Made by a program: the position numbers and the translations under genes. Of a stretch of DNA of 38,983 bases, positions 11,865-22,174 are shown piece after piece; positions within the stretch are counted from its first letter, which is position 1, and the number at the start of each line of letters is the position of its first letter. The DNA lies in contig JAUXZV010000023.1 in the NCBI GenBank assembly GCA_030693825.1, forward strand, positions 1-38,983. The letters run 5' to 3'. The notes below the pieces were generated by a model. The model was not told the DNA's origin. It did not search any database and was given only the letters and a program-made list of their open reading frames with translations. Source of the DNA: Myxococcales bacterium. GTDB lineage: Bacteria; Myxococcota; Myxococcia; Myxococcales; Myxococcaceae.

Positions 11865-12773
11865 TCACGAGTTCCGCGCGGCGGCAGCGCGGTCGAGGGC
11901 GAAGCGCACCACCTCCGACGCCACGTCTTGTCCGGTCGCGTGCTCGAGCCCCTCGAAACCCGGAGACGAGTTCAGCTCCATCACTCGCGGCCCGTCCTTG
12001 CCCTCGAGCATGTCGACGCCGCAGATGTCGAGGCCCACGAGCTTCGCCGCCTTCACGGCCGTCTCGAGGAACACTGGCTCGAGGGTGACGGGGCTGCCTT
12101 CTCCCCCGCGGTGAATGTTGCTGCGGAACTCACCGGCCCGGGCCTGGCGCCGCATCGCGCCCACGACGCGGTCGCCCACCACGAGCGCGCGCACGTCTCT
12201 GCCGCTCGACTCGGCGATGAACTCCTGCAGGCAGATCTCCTGGCCCAGCGAGGTGAAGGTGTCGACGATGGTGCGCGCCTCGGTCATCGTGGTGGCGATC
12301 ATCACGCCGACGCCCTGGGTGCCGCGGAGCAGCTTGATGATGCAGGGCAACCCGCCCACGGCGTCGACCAGCCGGACGATGTGCGCCGTGTCGTTCGCCA
12401 TCACGGTGCGGGGCACGCCGACGCCTCCGGCCGCGAGCACCTGCAGACACCGCACCTTGTCGCGGCTGCGCGCGATGGCCGAGGCGCCGTTGACGACGGG
12501 CACGCCCATCGAGTCGAGGTGGTTGACGACCTGCATGCCGTAGTTGGTGATGCTGGTGCCGATGCGCGGAATCACGGCCGAGAGGCCTTCGACGCTGACG
12601 CCCCGGTAGAGCAGCCGCGAGCCGTCGGGGCCGATCACCATGGTGCAGCGCAGGGTGTCGATGACGATGGGGCTGGCGTCGAGGGCCTCGGCGGCTTCGA
12701 CGAGGCGGGTCGTCGAGTACAGCGACCGCTGACGCGACAGAATGCAGAGGCGCTCGTGGCGCACGCGGGACAT
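11865..12773 (-). CDS. rimK: ATP-grasp ribosomal protein S6--L-glutamate ligase
   Basis: Near full-length match to the RimK pattern: ILSR...LYSTTRLVEAA...VIPRIGTSIT.YG....LDSMG....N...AIARSRDK.R.LQ.LA..G...P.T.......IKLL.GTQG.GV....T..EA......F.......LQEFI.E..G.D.R.LVVGD.VV.AM.R.A..GEFRSN.HRGG. Start taken at the ATG three codons inside the ORF. Confidence 0.9.
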   Translation of the reverse strand: MSRVRHERLCILSRQRSLYSTTRLVEAAEALDASPIVIDTLRCTMVIGPDGSRLLYRGVSVEGLSAVIPRIGTSITNYGMQVVNHLDSMGVPVVNGASAIARSRDKVRCLQVLAAGGVGVPRTVMANDTAHIVRLVDAVGGLPCIIKLLRGTQGVGVMIATTMTEARTIVDTFTSLGQEICLQEFIAESSGRDVRALVVGDRVVGAMRRQARAGEFRSNIHRGGEGSPVTLEPVFLETAVKAAKLVGLDICGVDMLEGKDGPRVMELNSSPGFEGLEHATGQDVASEVVRFALDRAAAARNS

Positions 12774-12828
12774 GCGCCACAACCGTACTGCCCACGTCCT
12801 CCGTCGTCCCGGTTTGTTGGCGAAACGA

Positions 12829-16263: not shown

Positions 16264-16370
16264 CGCAGTGATTTCAACAGGTTCTGGCCATGTCGCCCAT
16301 TCGGGCGAAACCAGCGCCTGCCGCGCGACGTAAGCCCCGTGTCGCGAACGAACCCATGGAGCCCGACACA

Positions 16371-17477
16371 ATGAGCCGCCTCGTCTTCCTGATGGTTGGA
16401 ATCGCCCTCGCCGTCGCCGCCGTCGCCTGGGCGCAGTCGTCGAGGGGCAGGACGGGAGCGCCCGGCGCCAACGCCTCCACCACCACCGATCCGGAGCTCC
16501 CCGTGAAGAACTACCTCAAGCCCTCGAAGGACGAGCTGAAGAAGAAGCTCACCGCAGAGCAGTTCAAGGTGACGTGTGAAGCCGACACCGAGCCGCCGTT
16601 CCGCAACGCGTACTGGAACAACCACGAGGCCGGAATCTACGTCGACATCACCACCGGCGAGCCGCTCTTCAGCTCCCTCGACAAGTTCGACTCGGGCTCT
16701 GGCTGGCCGAGCTTCACGAAGCCGATTCAGAAGCAGGTCGTCGTCGAGCACAAGGACGTGGCCTTCGGCATGGTTCGCGTCGAGGTGCGCTCGAAGGGCG
16801 GCGACGCCCACCTGGGCCACGTCTTCGATGACGGCCCGTCGGACAAGGGCGGCCTGCGCTACTGCATCAACTCGGCGTCGCTGCGTTTCATCCCCGTCGC
16901 GAAGCTCGAGGCCGAGGGGTACGGGGAGTACCTGCAGCTGTTCCAACCTGCATCATCCTCCGCAGCATCGAAGGAGAAGGCCGCCGTGAAGACCGAGACC
17001 GCGTACCTCGCTGGTGGCTGCTTCTGGGGCATGGAGGACCTGCTCCGCAAGATTCCGGGCGTCGTCGAGACCGAGGTTGGCTACACCGGCGGTCACCTCG
17101 ACAACCCGAAGTACGACGACACCCACGACAGCAGGTCGGGCCACGCGGAGTCGGTGAAGGTGGTGTTCGACCCTGCCGTGCTCTCGTACGCGACCCTGCT
17201 CGAGAAGTGGTTCTTCAAGATGCACGACCCGACGACGCCCAATCGTCAGGGCAACGACGTCGGCACGCAGTACCGCTCGGCGCTCTTCGTGATGGACGAC
17301 GCGCAGAAGAAGGTGGCCGATGAGGTCATCGCGAAGCTGAACAGGGCTGGCACCTGGAAGAAGCCCATCGCCACCACCATCGAGCCGTTCAAGAAGTGGT
17401 GGAAGGGCGAGGACTACCACCAGGACTACCTGCAGAAGAACCCGGGCGGGTACACGTGCCACTTCATGCGTGACTGA
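16371..17477 (+). CDS. secreted bifunctional peptide-methionine sulfoxide reductase (MsrB domain then MsrA domain)
   Basis: Signal [21 protein letters not shown]. MsrB motifs GSGWPSF and RYCINSASL. Linker. MsrA active site GGCFWG...YHQDY. Start taken at the internal ATG (the upstream 27 codons are R/P-rich). Confidence 0.88.
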
Positions 17478-17489
17478 TGCGTGAGCGTC

Positions 17490-18830
17490 TCACCGGGTGA
17501 CGGTCGCTTCCACGCGAACGGTGAGATCGGCGAACGACGGCTGGCTGTCATCGAAGTCGGCTTCGAGCAACACGACCTGCGGACCCACAGTCCGCGGAGT
17601 GAACGACAGAGTCCACTCGGCCATCGCGCCGGGCGCGGGAATCGGTCTCGACTCGAGCCCGAGCCCGGCAGGCAACGGCCGCACGCGCAGCTTCGTGCAC
17701 GCTCCGGTTCCGGTGTTGCGCACCTGAAGCCGGGCGATGCGCGTCTCGCCCACGACTGCCGAGCCAACGTTGACGTCAGAGGCCTCGAGCCTGCAATCGG
17801 TCGCGGCGAGCCCCTCGATGGCGAAGGGGATGCGGTCGGTCCACTCGCCCGTCGAGCCACGAACGGTGAGCCGCGGCCAGACGGAGCGGGCTCCGACGGC
17901 CTTCGGGCTCATGACGACCGTGAGGCCGGTGGGCGCCGAGGGCTCCAGCTGCGCGGGCAACGACGACGTCAGCGTGAGGATGCCGGCCTCGTCGCGGAAG
18001 CCGATGAGCGTCGCGGGCTCCGCGATGGCTTGAATGCTCCGCGAGATCTCCACCGGCGACCCGATGCGCACCCGCACCGGAGCCCGGGTGGGGTCGAGGT
18101 CGCGAACCGTACGGCCCGTCGCGGAGGCAGCCGGCCAGCTCAGGGCTCGACTTCCCACCGTCACGTTGGCCCGCGTGTCGAGCTCGAGCAGCGCCGGCGT
18201 CTCTGCCGTCACCGGCATGAGCTTCAAGAAGGGCAGGAGGCCGCCGAGCCCGCCCTTCTCGTCGTCGCCGTGAGAGACGACGCTGATTCGTTTCACCGTC
18301 GTCTCCCCACTGCGAACGCTGAAGCGCGCACGCTTGATCAGCACCGCGTCGGTTCGGTCGATTGGCAGCTCGAGGTCACCGAACGGGTTCAGCGCCTTGC
18401 AGCGGTCCAGCGGGAGCCCATCATCTTCAGCGCTCGTGTTCGCCGCGCACACCGTGAGGCCGAGGTCGACGATGGAGCGTGAGACGACCCAGCGCCCGGC
18501 TTCGACGCCGTCGACCAACACGACGACCGTGGTCTCTTCGCTGCCCAGCTTCGTGCGGGGCCAGGACAGGTCGACCCGGTCTTCTCCTGTCGTGGTGCGC
18601 AGACACGGGTCGGCGGCGCCATCGCGAGTGCAGGTCACCGTGCTCCTCGACGAGACCAGACTCAGCTGCGCCCTGAGGCCGTCTTCCATGTCCCAGGCCG
18701 AGACTTCGCCGAGCTTCACTGGAGCGCCACTCGCGACGCCGTTGAGCGTGACGACGGGGTCGGGGGCGGGCGGCGCACAGGCGGCGAGCAACAGCAGTCC
18801 GAGCAGCCAGCGCGGGTGAAGACGGAACAT
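17490..18830 (-). CDS. lipoprotein with C-terminal choice-of-anchor-D/Ig-like domain; third gene of the rSAM operon
   Basis: Lipobox LLLLAAC. C-terminus CRLEASDVNVGSAVVGETRIARLQVRNTGTGAC matches the choice-of-anchor-D pattern (FG.V.VG......L.N.G). AGGAG RBS overlaps the rSAM stop. 18-nt gap to the upstream gene. Confidence 0.7.
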   Translation of the reverse strand: MFRLHPRWLLGLLLLAACAPPAPDPVVTLNGVASGAPVKLGEVSAWDMEDGLRAQLSLVSSRSTVTCTRDGAADPCLRTTTGEDRVDLSWPRTKLGSEETTVVVLVDGVEAGRWVVSRSIVDLGLTVCAANTSAEDDGLPLDRCKALNPFGDLELPIDRTDAVLIKRARFSVRSGETTVKRISVVSHGDDEKGGLGGLLPFLKLMPVTAETPALLELDTRANVTVGSRALSWPAASATGRTVRDLDPTRAPVRVRIGSPVEISRSIQAIAEPATLIGFRDEAGILTLTSSLPAQLEPSAPTGLTVVMSPKAVGARSVWPRLTVRGSTGEWTDRIPFAIEGLAATDCRLEASDVNVGSAVVGETRIARLQVRNTGTGACTKLRVRPLPAGLGLESRPIPAPGAMAEWTLSFTPRTVGPQVVLLEADFDDSQPSFADLTVRVEATVTR

Positions 18831-18848
18831 GGTGACTCCTGGAACAGG

Positions 18849-20075
18849 TCAGACGGTTGGCGCGCGCTTCTTCACGAGCTCGCGCGGGGTCGGCGGCTTC
18901 ACATCGACGGCGTCGAACGGCTCTTCGACGATCTCGAAGCGGCCGTTGTCGAACGGCTGTCCCGGCGCTGCTTCCCGCAACACCAGCCGCTCGCGAACGC
19001 CCTTCTTCTGCTGCGCACGCGCGCGGAAGTAGCAGTACGGGTTGTTCCCCGGGCGACCCAGCACCGAGTGCGCGGTGAAGGTGCAGCCGCCCAGACACTC
19101 CTGCGCGAACGGGCACGTGCGGCAGAAGCCCCAGAGGTCGTCGACGGTGCGCGCGCGCGCGAACGCCAGCTGTGGCGCCTCGTCCCAGACCTGCTTCAAC
19201 GTCGAGTCCTTCAGCGAGCCGCCGATGTACGACGGCTGCAGCGAGGGGCAGCCCTTCACCGCGCCGTTCGCTTCGATGCCCATCACGAACTTGCCCGCGT
19301 TGCAGCCACGCCACGCGTCTTCGGGGTGCTCGGGCAACGAACGGAGCACCGGCTCCTCGGGGTGGAAGTACCCCAGGTTGTTCCCGGCCATCACGGCGAT
19401 GCGCGACTCGGCCCAGGCCTTCTTCTTGAGCGCGATGACGCGCGGCACGACGTTCAACAAGTCCCACGGCTGGAGGAGCATCGCGGGCCGGTCGGCAGCG
19501 CGGCCGAGCGGCGCGGTGATCTGCACCTGCCACGCGTGAATGCCCTGTGCTCGCAGGTGCTCGAAGAGGTCTTCGAGATCGCCCAGGTTGAGGCGGTTCA
19601 CGTTGGTGTTCGCCGACACCACGATGCCGGCCTCGCGCATGAAGCCCATCGCGGCGGTGGCCGATTGAAAGCTGCCTCGGGCGGCGCGCATCAGGTCGTG
19701 CGTCGGCTCGAGGCCATCGATGGAGACGGAGGCCTGGTACAGCCCCGCGCCCGCCATCTTGAACGCGAGGGCGCGATCGATGCCGCGCCCTCCCGTCGTG
19801 AGCACCGGCCGAATGCCGGCGGCCTTCAGCCCCGCGATGATCTCCAGGAACCCCGGGTGCAGGTACGCCTCGCCACCGATGAGCACGACTTCACGCGTGC
19901 CCATGGCAGCGAGCTCCTGCACGACCGACAGGGCCTTCTGCGTCGACAGCTCGCCTTCACGCACCTCGCCGGCGCGTGAGCCGCAATGCGTGCACGGTTG
20001 GTCGCACGCCAGCGTGAGCTCCCACACGACGTAGGCCGGGTGGTGTGCTTGCGAGAGGTCTTGTCGACGCGTCAT
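18849..20075 (-). CDS. radical SAM/SPASM-domain maturase-type enzyme
   Basis: CDQPCTHC (CxxxCxxC) 4Fe-4S/SAM cluster site near the N-terminus. GGEAYL glycine-rich SAM motif. C-terminal SPASM Cys cluster GCNAGKFVMGIEANGAVKGCP...GFCRTCPFAQECLGGC. 408 aa from the internal ATG. GAGG RBS overlaps the upstream gene's stop (translational coupling). Confidence 0.88.
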   Translation of the reverse strand: MTRRQDLSQAHHPAYVVWELTLACDQPCTHCGSRAGEVREGELSTQKALSVVQELAAMGTREVVLIGGEAYLHPGFLEIIAGLKAAGIRPVLTTGGRGIDRALAFKMAGAGLYQASVSIDGLEPTHDLMRAARGSFQSATAAMGFMREAGIVVSANTNVNRLNLGDLEDLFEHLRAQGIHAWQVQITAPLGRAADRPAMLLQPWDLLNVVPRVIALKKKAWAESRIAVMAGNNLGYFHPEEPVLRSLPEHPEDAWRGCNAGKFVMGIEANGAVKGCPSLQPSYIGGSLKDSTLKQVWDEAPQLAFARARTVDDLWGFCRTCPFAQECLGGCTFTAHSVLGRPGNNPYCYFRARAQQKKGVRERLVLREAAPGQPFDNGRFEIVEEPFDAVDVKPPTPRELVKKRAPTV

Positions 20076-20085
20076 GGGCGGTGCC

Positions 20086-20451
20086 TCAGGGCCCGCCGTC
20101 AGCGCCGCCGTCTCGTGAGCCGCCGTCCGAAGCGCCGGCGTCGGAGGGGGCGCCGCTGTCGTCGGTGAAGACCGTCGTGCCACCGTCGGGCTGGTTCACG
20201 AGGTCACCCGGGCAGCGGAAGGTGCTGGTCACGCCTCCGTCGGGGAGCGTCTCACTGACGGACCGGCAGCCCGTCGCAGGCGCCCCGTAGCAGGCCATCA
20301 GCGTCATCGAGGCCCCGAGTCCTCCGAGCAGGCCCATCGCCAGCCTGCCGAGCGACGACCTCGGCGTGAGCGGTCCCTCGCAGTGGGGACATTCGGAGAG
20401 TGAAACGGGGACGACGCCTGAACACGCTGGGCACTTCGACAGAGACGACAT
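20086..20451 (-). CDS. small zinc-ribbon / single-TM / Gly-Asp-rich-tail protein; candidate partner or substrate of the adjacent radical SAM enzyme
   Basis: 121 aa from an ATG with GGAGGGAG 9 nt upstream (the track ORF extends further 5' as R/P-rich junk). N-terminal CPACSG...CPHCEG zinc ribbon. TM helix LAMGLLGGLGASMTLMACYGAPA. Then CRSVSETLPDGGVTSTFRCPGDLVNQPDGG and a D/G/S-rich tail. 10-nt gap to the rSAM gene. Confidence 0.6.
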   Translation of the reverse strand: MSSLSKCPACSGVVPVSLSECPHCEGPLTPRSSLGRLAMGLLGGLGASMTLMACYGAPATGCRSVSETLPDGGVTSTFRCPGDLVNQPDGGTTVFTDDSGAPSDAGASDGGSRDGGADGGP

Positions 20452-20656
20452 GATGGGTGGCTCCCTCCGGCCGGTGTGGCGAAGCTCGAGAGCAATTCTG
20501 CTGCCACCGTCTCGATGCAGATGATCCGCCTGCTTGGGAAGCCACCTCGGTCGCCTCGACGCGCTGCTCGGGCATGGGCGACATGGCACAGGCGTCAGAG
20601 TTGCACTGGCTCGTCCCGCCAGCGCTCGAGCTGGCCAACACCCCGGGAGACGGCCA

Positions 20657-21250
20657 ATGGCAGGAGCGACGATGGTGTTCGGAGCCACGACGAGGCGATC
20701 CGAAAAGTGGCGGGTGTACCGAATTCGCACGGCCAACAGCACCTACGAGCTCGAAGTGCAGACCGAAGGGGCCGACCGCCGCTGCACCGTCTTGACGCGC
20801 ACCGAGCCCGCTGGTGAGCGCTACGAAGACTCCGCGCCGCAGCTCGATGGCCAGAGCCTCTACGCGCAATCAGCGTTGGACTGGATTGGGAAGCGGCTCT
20901 CGGTCGGTACTGCGTGCACGTCGGAGATCCAGTCCGTCGACTTCCTCACCACCACGTCGCAGCGCTCGGCGCCGTCGTCGACGATGGTGTTCGGTGAGAA
21001 GGCTCCACGGGCTGAGCCTGCGCGCGCGCAGCCGCCCCCTCGCGCCGAAGAGCGCCGCCCCGACTGGGCGCCGTTTCCGCTCGGCTATGTCGAGATGGCG
21101 GAGGCCGCGGCCAGTGTCCTCAAGTCCGTCGCCCATCGGCACGACCTCGCTGCGGCCTTGCGAGACGACCCGCACCTCCTGCGCCGCTATCAGCTCGCGC
21201 TCGCCGCCTGCGGACTCATGGTCGAGACGCTCACCAGGCGCGGCGACTGA
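20657..21250 (+). CDS. hypothetical protein
   Basis: 197 aa from an ATG with GGGAGA 6 nt upstream. Balanced composition (MVFGATTRRSEKWRVYRIRTANSTYELEVQTEGADRRCTVLTRTEP...). Convergent with the DMT transporter gene, 7-nt gap. I recognise no family. Confidence 0.45.
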   Translation: MAGATMVFGATTRRSEKWRVYRIRTANSTYELEVQTEGADRRCTVLTRTEPAGERYEDSAPQLDGQSLYAQSALDWIGKRLSVGTACTSEIQSVDFLTTTSQRSAPSSTMVFGEKAPRAEPARAQPPPRAEERRPDWAPFPLGYVEMAEAAASVLKSVAHRHDLAAALRDDPHLLRRYQLALAACGLMVETLTRRGD

Positions 21251-21256
21251 GAAGGG

Positions 21257-22174
21257 CTACCGTTCTGCGGTGCGCGCGAACGCCGTGCCCGGAGGCTTCG
21301 GTCGCTTCAGCCACCCATTGAGCAGCACGAGCGAGAGCAGGCCGAGCGCGCCCGTGTAGAACCGCCACGTCAGCTGCTCTTCGCCGGGGAACAAGATGTA
21401 CGCGAGTACCAGCGAATAGACGGGCTCGAGCGTGACGGTGAGGGCGATGGTGTACGGCGACAACGTCTCGAGGATGCGCAGGCTCGCCAGCCACGGGAAG
21501 ACCGTGCACACCACGCCGAGGAGCAAGAGCCAGCCCACGTCGGCGCCCGACAGCGCCCACGGCGGCACGAAGTCCCAGGCGAGGAACGCGAGCGACGTCA
21601 CCACCAGCCCCGACGACAGCTCGTGCAGCGTCACGCGCTCGGCCGGCTCGCCCTGACTCCAGCGCCCGTTGAGCGTGCCGAAGCCCGCCGAGAACAGCGC
21701 CGAGCCCAGCCCCAGCGCCAGGCCCATCGGCGTCGCGTTCGTCTCGAAGCGCACCAGGAGCGACACGCCGCCGACCGCCGCGAGGCCAATGAGCAATTCG
21801 GCCACCACGATGCCGCGCTTGAAGACGAGCGGCTCGATGAGGGCGGTGAAGAAGGTGATGGTCGACAGGCACAACACCGCCACCGCGACGCCTGCGTACT
21901 TGATGCACCCGTAGAAGCAGAGCCAGTGCAGCGCGACGAGCACGCCGATGCCCCAGAAGGCCCGCATCGTCTTCGGCGCCGTGGCGAAGGCCTGGCCCTT
22001 CCACTTCAAGGCGAGCGCCATCACCGGGAGCACCACCACCAGCCGGTACCAGACGAGCGGCACGGCCGAGATGCTGATGAGCCGGCCGAGAATGGCGGTG
22101 AAGCCCCAGGTGAAGACCGTCACGTGGAGCAGCGCGTGCGCCGCGCGAGGCGAGAGCGGCTTCGACGGCGACAT
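21257..22174 (-). CDS. DMT-superfamily (EamA-like) transporter
   Basis: Ten predicted TM helices in two EamA-type halves. Start at the internal ATG (the upstream 29 codons are R/C/S-rich). 5-nt gap after the upstream gene. Confidence 0.8.
   Translation of the reverse strand: MSPSKPLSPRAAHALLHVTVFTWGFTAILGRLISISAVPLVWYRLVVVLPVMALALKWKGQAFATAPKTMRAFWGIGVLVALHWLCFYGCIKYAGVAVAVLCLSTITFFTALIEPLVFKRGIVVAELLIGLAAVGGVSLLVRFETNATPMGLALGLGSALFSAGFGTLNGRWSQGEPAERVTLHELSSGLVVTSLAFLAWDFVPPWALSGADVGWLLLLGVVCTVFPWLASLRILETLSPYTIALTVTLEPVYSLVLAYILFPGEEQLTWRFYTGALGLLSLVLLNGWLKRPKPPGTAFARTAER

Follow-up and report, generated by a model that had tools for sequence, protein, structure and literature searches.

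Spliceases are radical S-adenosylmethionine (SAM) enzymes that cut a tyrosine out of an X-Tyr-Gly (X-Y-G) site and leave a reactive keto-amide. To our knowledge, no other route is known by which beta-amino acids and keto-amide warheads can be ribosomally encoded. A 2022 census by Scott et al. reportedly lists YG-associated spliceases in 189 genera, and may already include a myxobacterial type. PlpX-type enzymes excise tyramine at X-Y-G sites (PMC11414181, PMC11626197, PMC9811515, PMC11002830). In the type I spliceotide systems (PlpA/PlpX/PlpY and PcpA/X/Y of Pleurocapsa; TIGR04103), a radical SAM/SPASM enzyme is accompanied by a small Y partner, which is similar to the RiPP recognition element (RRE), and by precursors that have a Nif11 or NHLP leader as well as a core at the C-terminus behind a GG cleavage site. 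Many of the splicease pathways found later are binary and lack the Y protein, and a helix of the precursor binds the enzyme (PMC11414181, PMC11626197, PMC9811515, PMC11002830, PMC10849128). The type II spliceases RhaX/RhaA, RcsX/RcsA and RasX/RasA of Rheinheimera are of this binary kind, and the helix N-terminal to the site is proposed to bind and activate the enzyme (PMC11414181, PMC11626197). In the present study we describe a small gene and its neighbouring radical SAM/SPASM gene in a stretch of Myxococcales DNA (contig JAUXZV010000023.1, 38,983 nucleotides, 68.6% G+C; hereafter the window, meaning the whole stretch analysed), and compare the pair with these systems.

The small gene (20451..20086, minus strand) consists of 121 codons and a TGA stop, and encodes a predicted splicease precursor ('A' protein). 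The gene downstream of it (18849..20075, minus strand) encodes a 408-amino-acid (aa) enzyme with Pfam Radical_SAM and SPASM domains, a predicted tyramine splicease ('X' protein). We consider it rather probable, judging from the sequences and the gene order, that the small protein is a membrane-targeted splicease precursor and that it forms a binary system with its neighbour. The likeness to type I spliceotides lies in the enzyme and in an adjacent X-Y-G substrate with the site in a small hydrophobic context (IALYGLPP and AAMYGVV in type I, LMACYGAPP in the window). The differences are also clear. The window precursor has a zinc ribbon and a hydrophobic helix instead of a Nif11 or NHLP leader, its X is Cys, and its site ends a membrane-type helix instead of lying in a C-terminal core that follows a GG cleavage site. 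The locus has no gene for a small Y partner, in contrast to the Nostoc locus described below. The type II systems share with the window the two genes and the lack of a Y protein, and the window helix directly precedes C-Y-G. However, the precursors of the type II systems are described as soluble leader-plus-core peptides without a zinc ribbon, hydrophobic anchor or lipobox.

The radical SAM domain of the window enzyme is matched by Pfam with E 1e-17, and the cysteine motifs C24-x3-C28-x2-C31, C..GxxxxC and CxxCx5Cx3C are readable. Its best NCBIfam match is TIGR04103, 'nif11-class peptide radical SAM maturase 3' (426.6 bits, E 8e-128, cut-off 725), followed by TIGR03913, 'GDL motif peptide-associated maturase' (374.5 bits, E 6e-112, cut-off 591.75), and the next family is far behind (143 bits, E 2e-41). 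The nearest solved structures, SkfB and PqqE, are both distant, and in Archangium, Cystobacter and Corallococcus the enzyme is annotated merely as 'radical SAM/SPASM domain-containing protein'. Genuine members of the two best families were obtained from annotated plasmids with tblastn. The TIGR04103 enzyme of Nostoc sp. C057 is 46% identical to the window enzyme (E 5e-127) and the TIGR03913 enzyme of Azospirillum is 44% identical (E 4e-109), each over ∼93% of the length. The window enzyme and these relatives have a C-terminal tail in common, G-[IV]-R-E-R...A-P-G-x-P-F-D-N-G-x-F-x-I-[IV]-E-E-P. The Nostoc gene (locus L141) lies between a Nif11 precursor ending in ...AGGRGSIALYGLPPELF (IALYGLPPELF) and a 71-aa Y-like open reading frame (ORF). 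This precursor is 53% identical to PlpA3, the sequence of which was taken from the supplement of PMC10533398, and the two align through the splice site (IALYGL versus AAMYGV). The Azospirillum gene is preceded by three DUF1843 peptides with starts such as MSTPPIRMLYGG... and ...SIKPYGV..., with MLYGG or KPYGV near the N-terminus, and the Aureibacter homologue is preceded by a similar DUF1843 trio with QPYGA. Literature searches on TIGR03913, TIGR04103, 'GDL motif' and the TLMACYG motif returned nothing relevant.

A zinc ribbon of the form CxxC-x10-CP[HF]C is fused to several enzymes of the splicease clade (L140 2884-4440, L142 2438-3862 and L143 2210-3832). The fused ribbon (LCRACNQYVWPHETDCPHCG, with the same spacing) is C-terminal in the Azospirillum and Aureibacter enzymes and N-terminal in a Tropicibacter homologue. 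The window enzyme ends at position 392 of 477 in the TIGR03913 profile and has no C-terminal zinc ribbon. TIGR03913 is also the NCBIfam model matched by most members of the small-protein family (36 of 148, best E 7.5e-4). From these sequences, the splicease-type enzyme clade appears to use the zinc ribbon as an accessory module. The GDL-motif systems thus resemble the window both in their maturase and in containing a CxxC-x10-CPHC ribbon. They differ from it in that their ribbon is on the enzyme C-terminus and not on the substrate N-terminus, and in that their peptides are soluble helical DUF1843 proteins in threes, whereas the small protein of the window is not a DUF1843 protein (no Pfam match).

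The preliminary description of this DNA, made from the sequence alone, had assigned the small protein a CxxC...CxxC zinc ribbon, a single membrane span and a tail rich in Asp and Gly, and the sequence agrees with this architecture. Its cysteines are at positions 7, 10, 21, 24, 54, 62 and 80, and its single YG is at 55. The zinc ribbon (residues 7-24, CPACSGVVPVSLSECPHC; 20380..20433, minus strand) has the spacing CxxC-x10-CxxC and is predicted to be cytoplasmic. The Gly-rich segment of residues 37-53 (LAMGLLGGLGASMTLMA; 20293..20343, minus strand) is the only hydrophobic stretch, a 17-mer with a Kyte-Doolittle mean of 1.59, and has the character of a signal-anchor or a lipoprotein-type hydrophobic region (h-region). 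It ends in the motif T50-L-M-A-C54-Y55-G56 (20284..20304, minus strand), which contains the predicted X-Y-G splice site and a lipobox-like L-M-A-C overlapping it. The remainder, residues 57-121 (20089..20283, minus strand), is a variable tail that is predicted to be exported and contains a putative beta unit followed by D/G-rich repeats ending in DGGP; this tail is acidic (10 D+E versus 3 K+R). The protein very probably has the topology N-in, single hydrophobic span, C-out, as read from its sequence. An AlphaFold2 model built from a 22-sequence alignment is poor (predicted local distance difference test, pLDDT, 54), and is useful only for a small beta unit at approximately residues 61-94 that is bracketed by C62 and C80, with pLDDT 70-76 for residues 61-90 only. 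The ribbon region of the model shows short strands at 4-6 and 13-15 (pLDDT 52-57). The small protein has no Pfam or NCBIfam match at E≤0.01, and at E≤10 only generic, weak zinc-ribbon matches were found in NCBIfam.

Profile searching of 1.84 billion representative sequences (E≤1e-3) identified a family of 366 clusters at 50% identity, mostly from Myxococcota, with nearly all members between 70 and 160 aa. The family is found in Myxococcia, Polyangia and some low-GC lineages. A scan of metagenome DNA for TLMACYG yielded ∼65 further true loci, after discarding ∼45% of 120 pattern matches as chance occurrences without a zinc ribbon. The conserved module has a fixed order: a short N-terminus, the ribbon C-x2-C-x-G-[FLV]-[VLI]-P ... 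C-P-[HN]-C, a K/R-rich linker, a Gly-rich hydrophobic run of ∼17 residues and T-L-M-A-C-Y-G-x-P-P. The ribbon spacing is 14 in 175 of 189 members. Linkers contain on average 3.3 K/R and 0.8 D/E, a basic residue stands just before the hydrophobic run, and the distance from the last K/R to the Cys is usually 16-17 residues. The tail after the motif varies from 7 to 307 residues and is of unrelated composition across the wide family, including D/G repeats, charged low-complexity sequence, myxobacterial cysteine-rich acidic repeats (P0112, P0051) and globular domains; the tails are 15% Asp. The myxobacterial cysteine-rich acidic repeat is typical of exported proteins. The G+C content of the loci is mostly at least 65% and in a few cases 38-53%. 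One contig of 38% G+C (L117 1630-3148) contains the pair, with an 89-aa precursor that has a short charged tail of ∼30 residues and an enzyme 52% identical to that of the window, and the family therefore extends to a low-GC lineage.

Nine residues, C7, C10, C21, C24, T50, A53, C54, Y55 and G56, are invariant in an alignment of 148 members, and A-C-Y-G is present in 148 of 148, in a motif-enriched set in which 45 members came from the TLMACYG DNA scan, such that the invariance of the motif is partly due to selection. In the 170 profile matches, which were not chosen by motif, T-x-x-A-C-Y-G is present in 158 and the exact TLMACYG in 132; among 21 variants, 18 have S, A or T in place of the Met. 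Of 198 members, just 16 contain a second YG. Splicing is predicted at C54-Y55-G56 because the closest enzyme families adjoin peptides with X-Y-G sites, and the motif precedes x-P-P, which also follows the site in the Nostoc core. With a splice site at this position, it would make sense that Tyr and Gly are no less fixed than Cys, that no neighbour other than the enzyme gene is conserved and that the tail can be anything. The preliminary description had also proposed the tail cysteines as modification targets. A modified site remains the favoured idea, with A53-C54-Y55-G56 as the candidate, but the tail cysteines are not supported as targets. They are C62 and C80, and not C65 and C83 as first numbered; C62 and the DGG repeats are clade-specific, C80 is not conserved, and homologues outside the clade do not retain the C-terminal cysteines and DGG motifs, which are clade features at most. 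A conserved ribbon followed by a variable tail had been named from the start as the finding that would speak against the tail cysteines, and the tail is variable across the family.

The radical SAM/SPASM gene lies directly beside the small gene in 42 of the 52 unique members that were informative. It is immediately downstream on the same strand in 26 cases, divergent upstream in 15 and upstream on the same strand in 1, and in 1 further case it is found at a distance of 729 nt. The neighbouring enzymes are 52-98% identical to the window enzyme. The pair was confirmed in cultured or near-complete Myxococcota genomes, namely in Pyxidicoccus, in Labilithrix with two tandem small genes, and in a 6.1-Mb genome with TLSACYG. 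The earlier view that no sigma factor is adjacent and that the radical SAM enzyme is the partner thus agrees with the adjacency across loci. Clustering of all ORFs in the related loci identified no third recurrent gene family; the candidates for a third gene were rejected as antisense or alternative-frame artefacts of the radical SAM gene and as clade-level synteny (EamA, a 375-aa protein, MsrB-MsrA and an FabH-like gene). Duplicate precursor genes, tandem or overlapping, were seen beside one radical SAM gene in the Labilithrix genome and one metagenome contig (L139 4433-4944 and L035 1435-2097). A sub-family with the tail C[VI]DQDDDGWFPACYD.. (L054, L068, L072, L097, L114 and L120; e.g. L114 5878-6390) has no radical SAM gene nearby and adjoins a gene for a glycine-rich RNA-binding protein of the RNA recognition motif type; its members are probably unlinked extra substrates.

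The linkage could also be read in another way, with the small protein as a membrane anchor or regulatory partner of the enzyme, or as a lipoprotein whose linkage to it is merely regulatory. As an anchor, its zinc ribbon would dock the enzyme at the membrane and the enzyme would act on something else. In the sister families the enzyme itself carries the zinc ribbon, a lipobox-like pattern is present, and the tail of the low-GC members is merely ∼30 unremarkable residues, all of which would suit a protein that is not a substrate. However, the seven-residue motif T-L-M-A-C-Y-G, which includes the Y-G pair that marks splicease substrates, far exceeds in its invariance what a lipobox or an anchor would need, and the loci contain no other recurrent gene that could encode a substrate. 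We regard a non-substrate role as improbable.

If the small protein is a splicease precursor, a sequence of events can be proposed for it. The protein would be made in the cytoplasm, where the N-terminal zinc ribbon, the helix before the site, or both may dock it on the radical SAM/SPASM enzyme; the role of the ribbon would be to dock or activate the enzyme. A tyramine equivalent, made up of the side chain and backbone atoms of Tyr55, would then be excised in A-C-Y-G, with Cys54 as X. The hydrophobic segment would subsequently insert the protein in the inner membrane, such that the ribbon remains inside and the acidic tail lies on the outside, and the L-M-A-C lipobox may lead to lipidation of the product on Cys54 and cleavage before it. 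Splicing at C-Y-G, docking by the ribbon, the topology, the lipidation and what the product would do are all predicted here from sequence features. A lipobox of the form [LVI]-[ASTVIM]-[GAS]-C after a basic residue and an uncharged h-region is readable in the window protein (L-M-A-C) and in the family (L-[MSAT]-A-C), and the core of the G+LPPv2 pattern fits 195 of 198 members. The Cys at position 54 is outside the usual range of ∼15-35 from the N-terminus, since the zinc ribbon adds an extension of ∼30 residues before the n-region. A twin-arginine signal was rejected on reading the sequences, as the linkers contain no consistent RR motif.

Modification in the cytoplasm followed by lipoprotein processing has a precedent in the DAG-RiPPs (PMC13056109). 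In these, a ribosomal peptide is modified in the cytoplasm and is subsequently exported and lipidated by housekeeping machinery, and a lipoprotein-type signal that includes the lipobox Cys serves as the leader (PMC13056109). In contrast to the window, their enzymes are multinuclear iron oxidases, the modified site is far from the lipobox and the signal has no N-terminal zinc ribbon; the lipidation of the window protein is predicted. A more specific and tentative proposal, which we think unlikely though possible, is that the splice site and the lipobox are one, in that, once tyramine has been excised, export of the protein would be followed by diacylglyceryl modification of Cys54 and cleavage before it to give a lipoprotein with an alpha-keto-beta-cysteine as its first residue. 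The myxobacterial envelope, or outer membrane vesicles, would thereby display an electrophilic keto-amide anchored by lipid, possibly as a tethered protease inhibitor or a reactive handle, and the released fragment of ribbon and helix would have been the docking leader for the enzyme. Such a product would be the first 'lipo-spliceotide' made by a radical SAM enzyme, and the first lipoprotein to have its backbone rearranged post-translationally at the +1 residue.

Several points weigh against the splicease reading of the pair, which is known from its sequences and its gene context. The enzyme is below the curated cut-offs of both TIGR04103 and TIGR03913; it therefore belongs to a separate subfamily and could catalyse a different chemistry. 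The link between TIGR04103 and PlpX draws on cluster and precursor homology and on one paper that names the PlpX InterPro entry, IPR026482, and the X-Y-G sites of the TIGR03913/DUF1843 peptides are a likeness of sequence. Acceptance of Cys as X was not found in the splicease papers cited here. A hydrophobic signal-anchor beside the site would compete with the cytoplasmic enzyme for the nascent chain, which poses a kinetic problem, and the AlphaFold2 model left the hydrophobic helix unmodelled. Furthermore, a radical SAM gene is absent from the surrounding 1.5 kb in 9 of the 52 members, all of them on long contigs, although one of these nine (L050) is a 43-aa ORF that is probably spurious.

A different chemistry at the same motif has to be weighed in this context. 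The enzyme could instead form a thioether at Cys54 of the sactipeptide or ranthipeptide type, e.g. to Thr50 in T-x3-C, convert the Cys to formylglycine or carry out an epimerisation. The position of the enzyme as a distinct subfamily would allow this, as would the invariant Cys within the motif and the nearest solved structures, of which SkfB is a thioether former. However, the two closest families, both matched with more than 370 bits, adjoin X-Y-G peptides, while the SkfB- and PqqE-type families reach at most 143 bits, and neither a thioether nor a formylglycine would account for a Tyr and a Gly as invariant as the Cys. Another chemistry at the motif is therefore fairly unlikely in our view. 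A role of the enzyme in the heme pathway was also considered and rejected: AhbD scored 143 bits against a cut-off of 500, AhbD and NirJ are the weaker matches, and synteny with hemE and hemH is not general. Two distant Myxococcota lineages (L137 3411-4457 and L139 8044-11236) do have heme biosynthesis genes close to the pair, where they encode uroporphyrinogen decarboxylase, ferrochelatase and an amine-oxidase-type protoporphyrinogen oxidase, and they are not found near it in the window.

The preliminary description had likened the small protein to zinc-binding anti-sigma (ZAS) factors or membrane-tethered regulators, and this comparison does not hold up. The topology is indeed that of single-pass anti-sigma factors, with a cytoplasmic Cys-rich N-terminus, one span and a tail outside, and ZAS factors of the RsrA and RslA type share the Cys-rich cytoplasmic N-terminus and, in the membrane-bound members, the single span. 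However, ZAS factors contain HxxxCxxC in a helical anti-sigma domain of ∼80 aa and are encoded next to an extracytoplasmic function sigma factor gene, neither of which is found in the window. The small protein has just an 18-residue ribbon with four Cys, the Pfam and NCBIfam searches gave it no family, and its conserved partner is the radical SAM enzyme. A sigma factor gene is neither near it in the window, where the neighbours are the radical SAM gene, a 192-aa orphan and an EamA gene, nor recurrent in ∼70 loci. The small protein is most likely not a regulator, and an anti-sigma factor or membrane-tethered transcriptional regulator is very improbable.

The 121-codon gene is contained in a longer minus-strand ORF of 218 aa, which runs without interruption from GTG 20742 to the stop at 20086. 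The longer ORF is an artefact and the 121-aa ORF is the real gene, with its start at ATG 20451, as had been proposed from the sequence. All 21 of the close homologues are 82-126 aa long, and they have the common start M-S-S-L-S-K-C-P; the 85-aa homologue P0020 is a truncated gene call, for which a zinc ribbon and an in-frame ATG were found upstream. The extension to 218 aa was absent from all homologues found in the close set and the profile search. The G+C content at third codon positions (GC3) is 0.83 in the 121 codons and 0.83-0.93 in the neighbouring genes, but only 0.60-0.65 in the upstream extension. A Shine-Dalgarno sequence (GGAGGGAG; 20469..20462, minus strand) is separated by a 9-nt spacer from ATG 20451, and a GGAG-type sequence is kept in the close loci. 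The DNA 5' of this ribosome-binding site aligns between ten related loci only as short blocks with indels, which indicates that it behaves as non-coding DNA. The uninterrupted frame favours the longer product, and against it stand its low GC3, its absence from homologues, the position of the ribosome-binding site and a conserved promoter element inside the extension, and the overlap with a real antisense gene, so that we give a 218-aa product almost no credence. The antisense gene (20672..21250, plus strand) shares 71 nt with the long ORF, at the start of the latter. It encodes 192 aa, has an AGGAG ribosome-binding site and a GC3 of 0.83, and is an insertion that separates the EamA gene from the small gene. 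Its product has no Pfam or NCBIfam match, and a copy, 96% identical, is found solely in the closest locus, L006; in the other relatives the gap between EamA and the small gene is ∼140 nt. In a genome of 69% G+C, a gene of 121 codons is easily masked by a longer spurious ORF, which is a lesson for annotation.

The promoter element within the long ORF is of the sigma-54 type (TGGCAGCAGAATTGCT, TGGCAG-N5-TTGCT at -24/-12; 20506..20491, minus strand), and is the sole match in the window at ≤1 mismatch. In all close loci (L001-L013) it keeps a fixed distance of 55-60 nt to the ATG downstream, and it occurs in 16 of 71 upstream regions family-wide, compared to an expectation of 0.017 per region. The sequences thus suggest that the operon in the window clade is transcribed from a sigma-54-type promoter. 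A conserved non-coding block (CTGACGcctgtgCCATGTCGC, with the pattern CTGACG-N6-CCATGTCGC; 20578..20598, minus strand) corresponds to the (near-)invariant columns 23-45 of the upstream alignment A3, lies ∼75-90 nt upstream of the sigma-54-type element, and is a possible candidate for the binding site of a sigma-54 activator. A scan of 17300-21400 for sigma-70 promoters and terminators gave no match. The radical SAM gene starts at ATG 20075 and not at GTG 20183, in line with the length of its homologues (408 aa), which leaves a gap of 10 nt and no overlap after the TGA of the small gene. Translational coupling of the two genes, as earlier suggested, is plausible within the window clade (gaps of 4-11 nt) but does not extend to the family, in which 15 of 42 adjacent pairs are divergent.

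A lipoprotein-like gene (17490..18830, minus strand) lies 18 nt downstream of the radical SAM gene and encodes 446 aa with the signal LLLAAC|APP. It is present in the window, L003, L012 and L009 (47% identical) and absent in L001 and L004, its product has only a weak choice-of-anchor D match, and it is a clade-specific, dispensable passenger of the operon. A fused MsrB-MsrA gene with an N-terminal hydrophobic signal (16290-17477, plus strand) is convergent with the operon; its synteny is kept in the close clade (L001, L003 and L004) and not beyond, and the motif has a near-invariant Met52. A RimK-type ATP-grasp ligase gene (11865-12782, minus strand) is located 7 kb from the pair, and another (L142 101-1477) lies beside the Aureibacter DUF1843 trio; this proximity is probably a coincidence.

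The characterised splicease substrates in the papers cited here are soluble leader-plus-core peptides. The family described in this study is phylum-wide, and in its members the X-Y-G site is located where a membrane helix passes into an exported tail, coincides in part with a lipobox and is accompanied by a zinc ribbon. If the splicease reading is true, protein splicing would extend to envelope proteins, and the zinc ribbon would be a recognition element that can reside on either the enzyme or the substrate. It would also provide a function for small genes that encode a 'hypothetical protein' in cultured Pyxidicoccus, Archangium, Cystobacter and Corallococcus.

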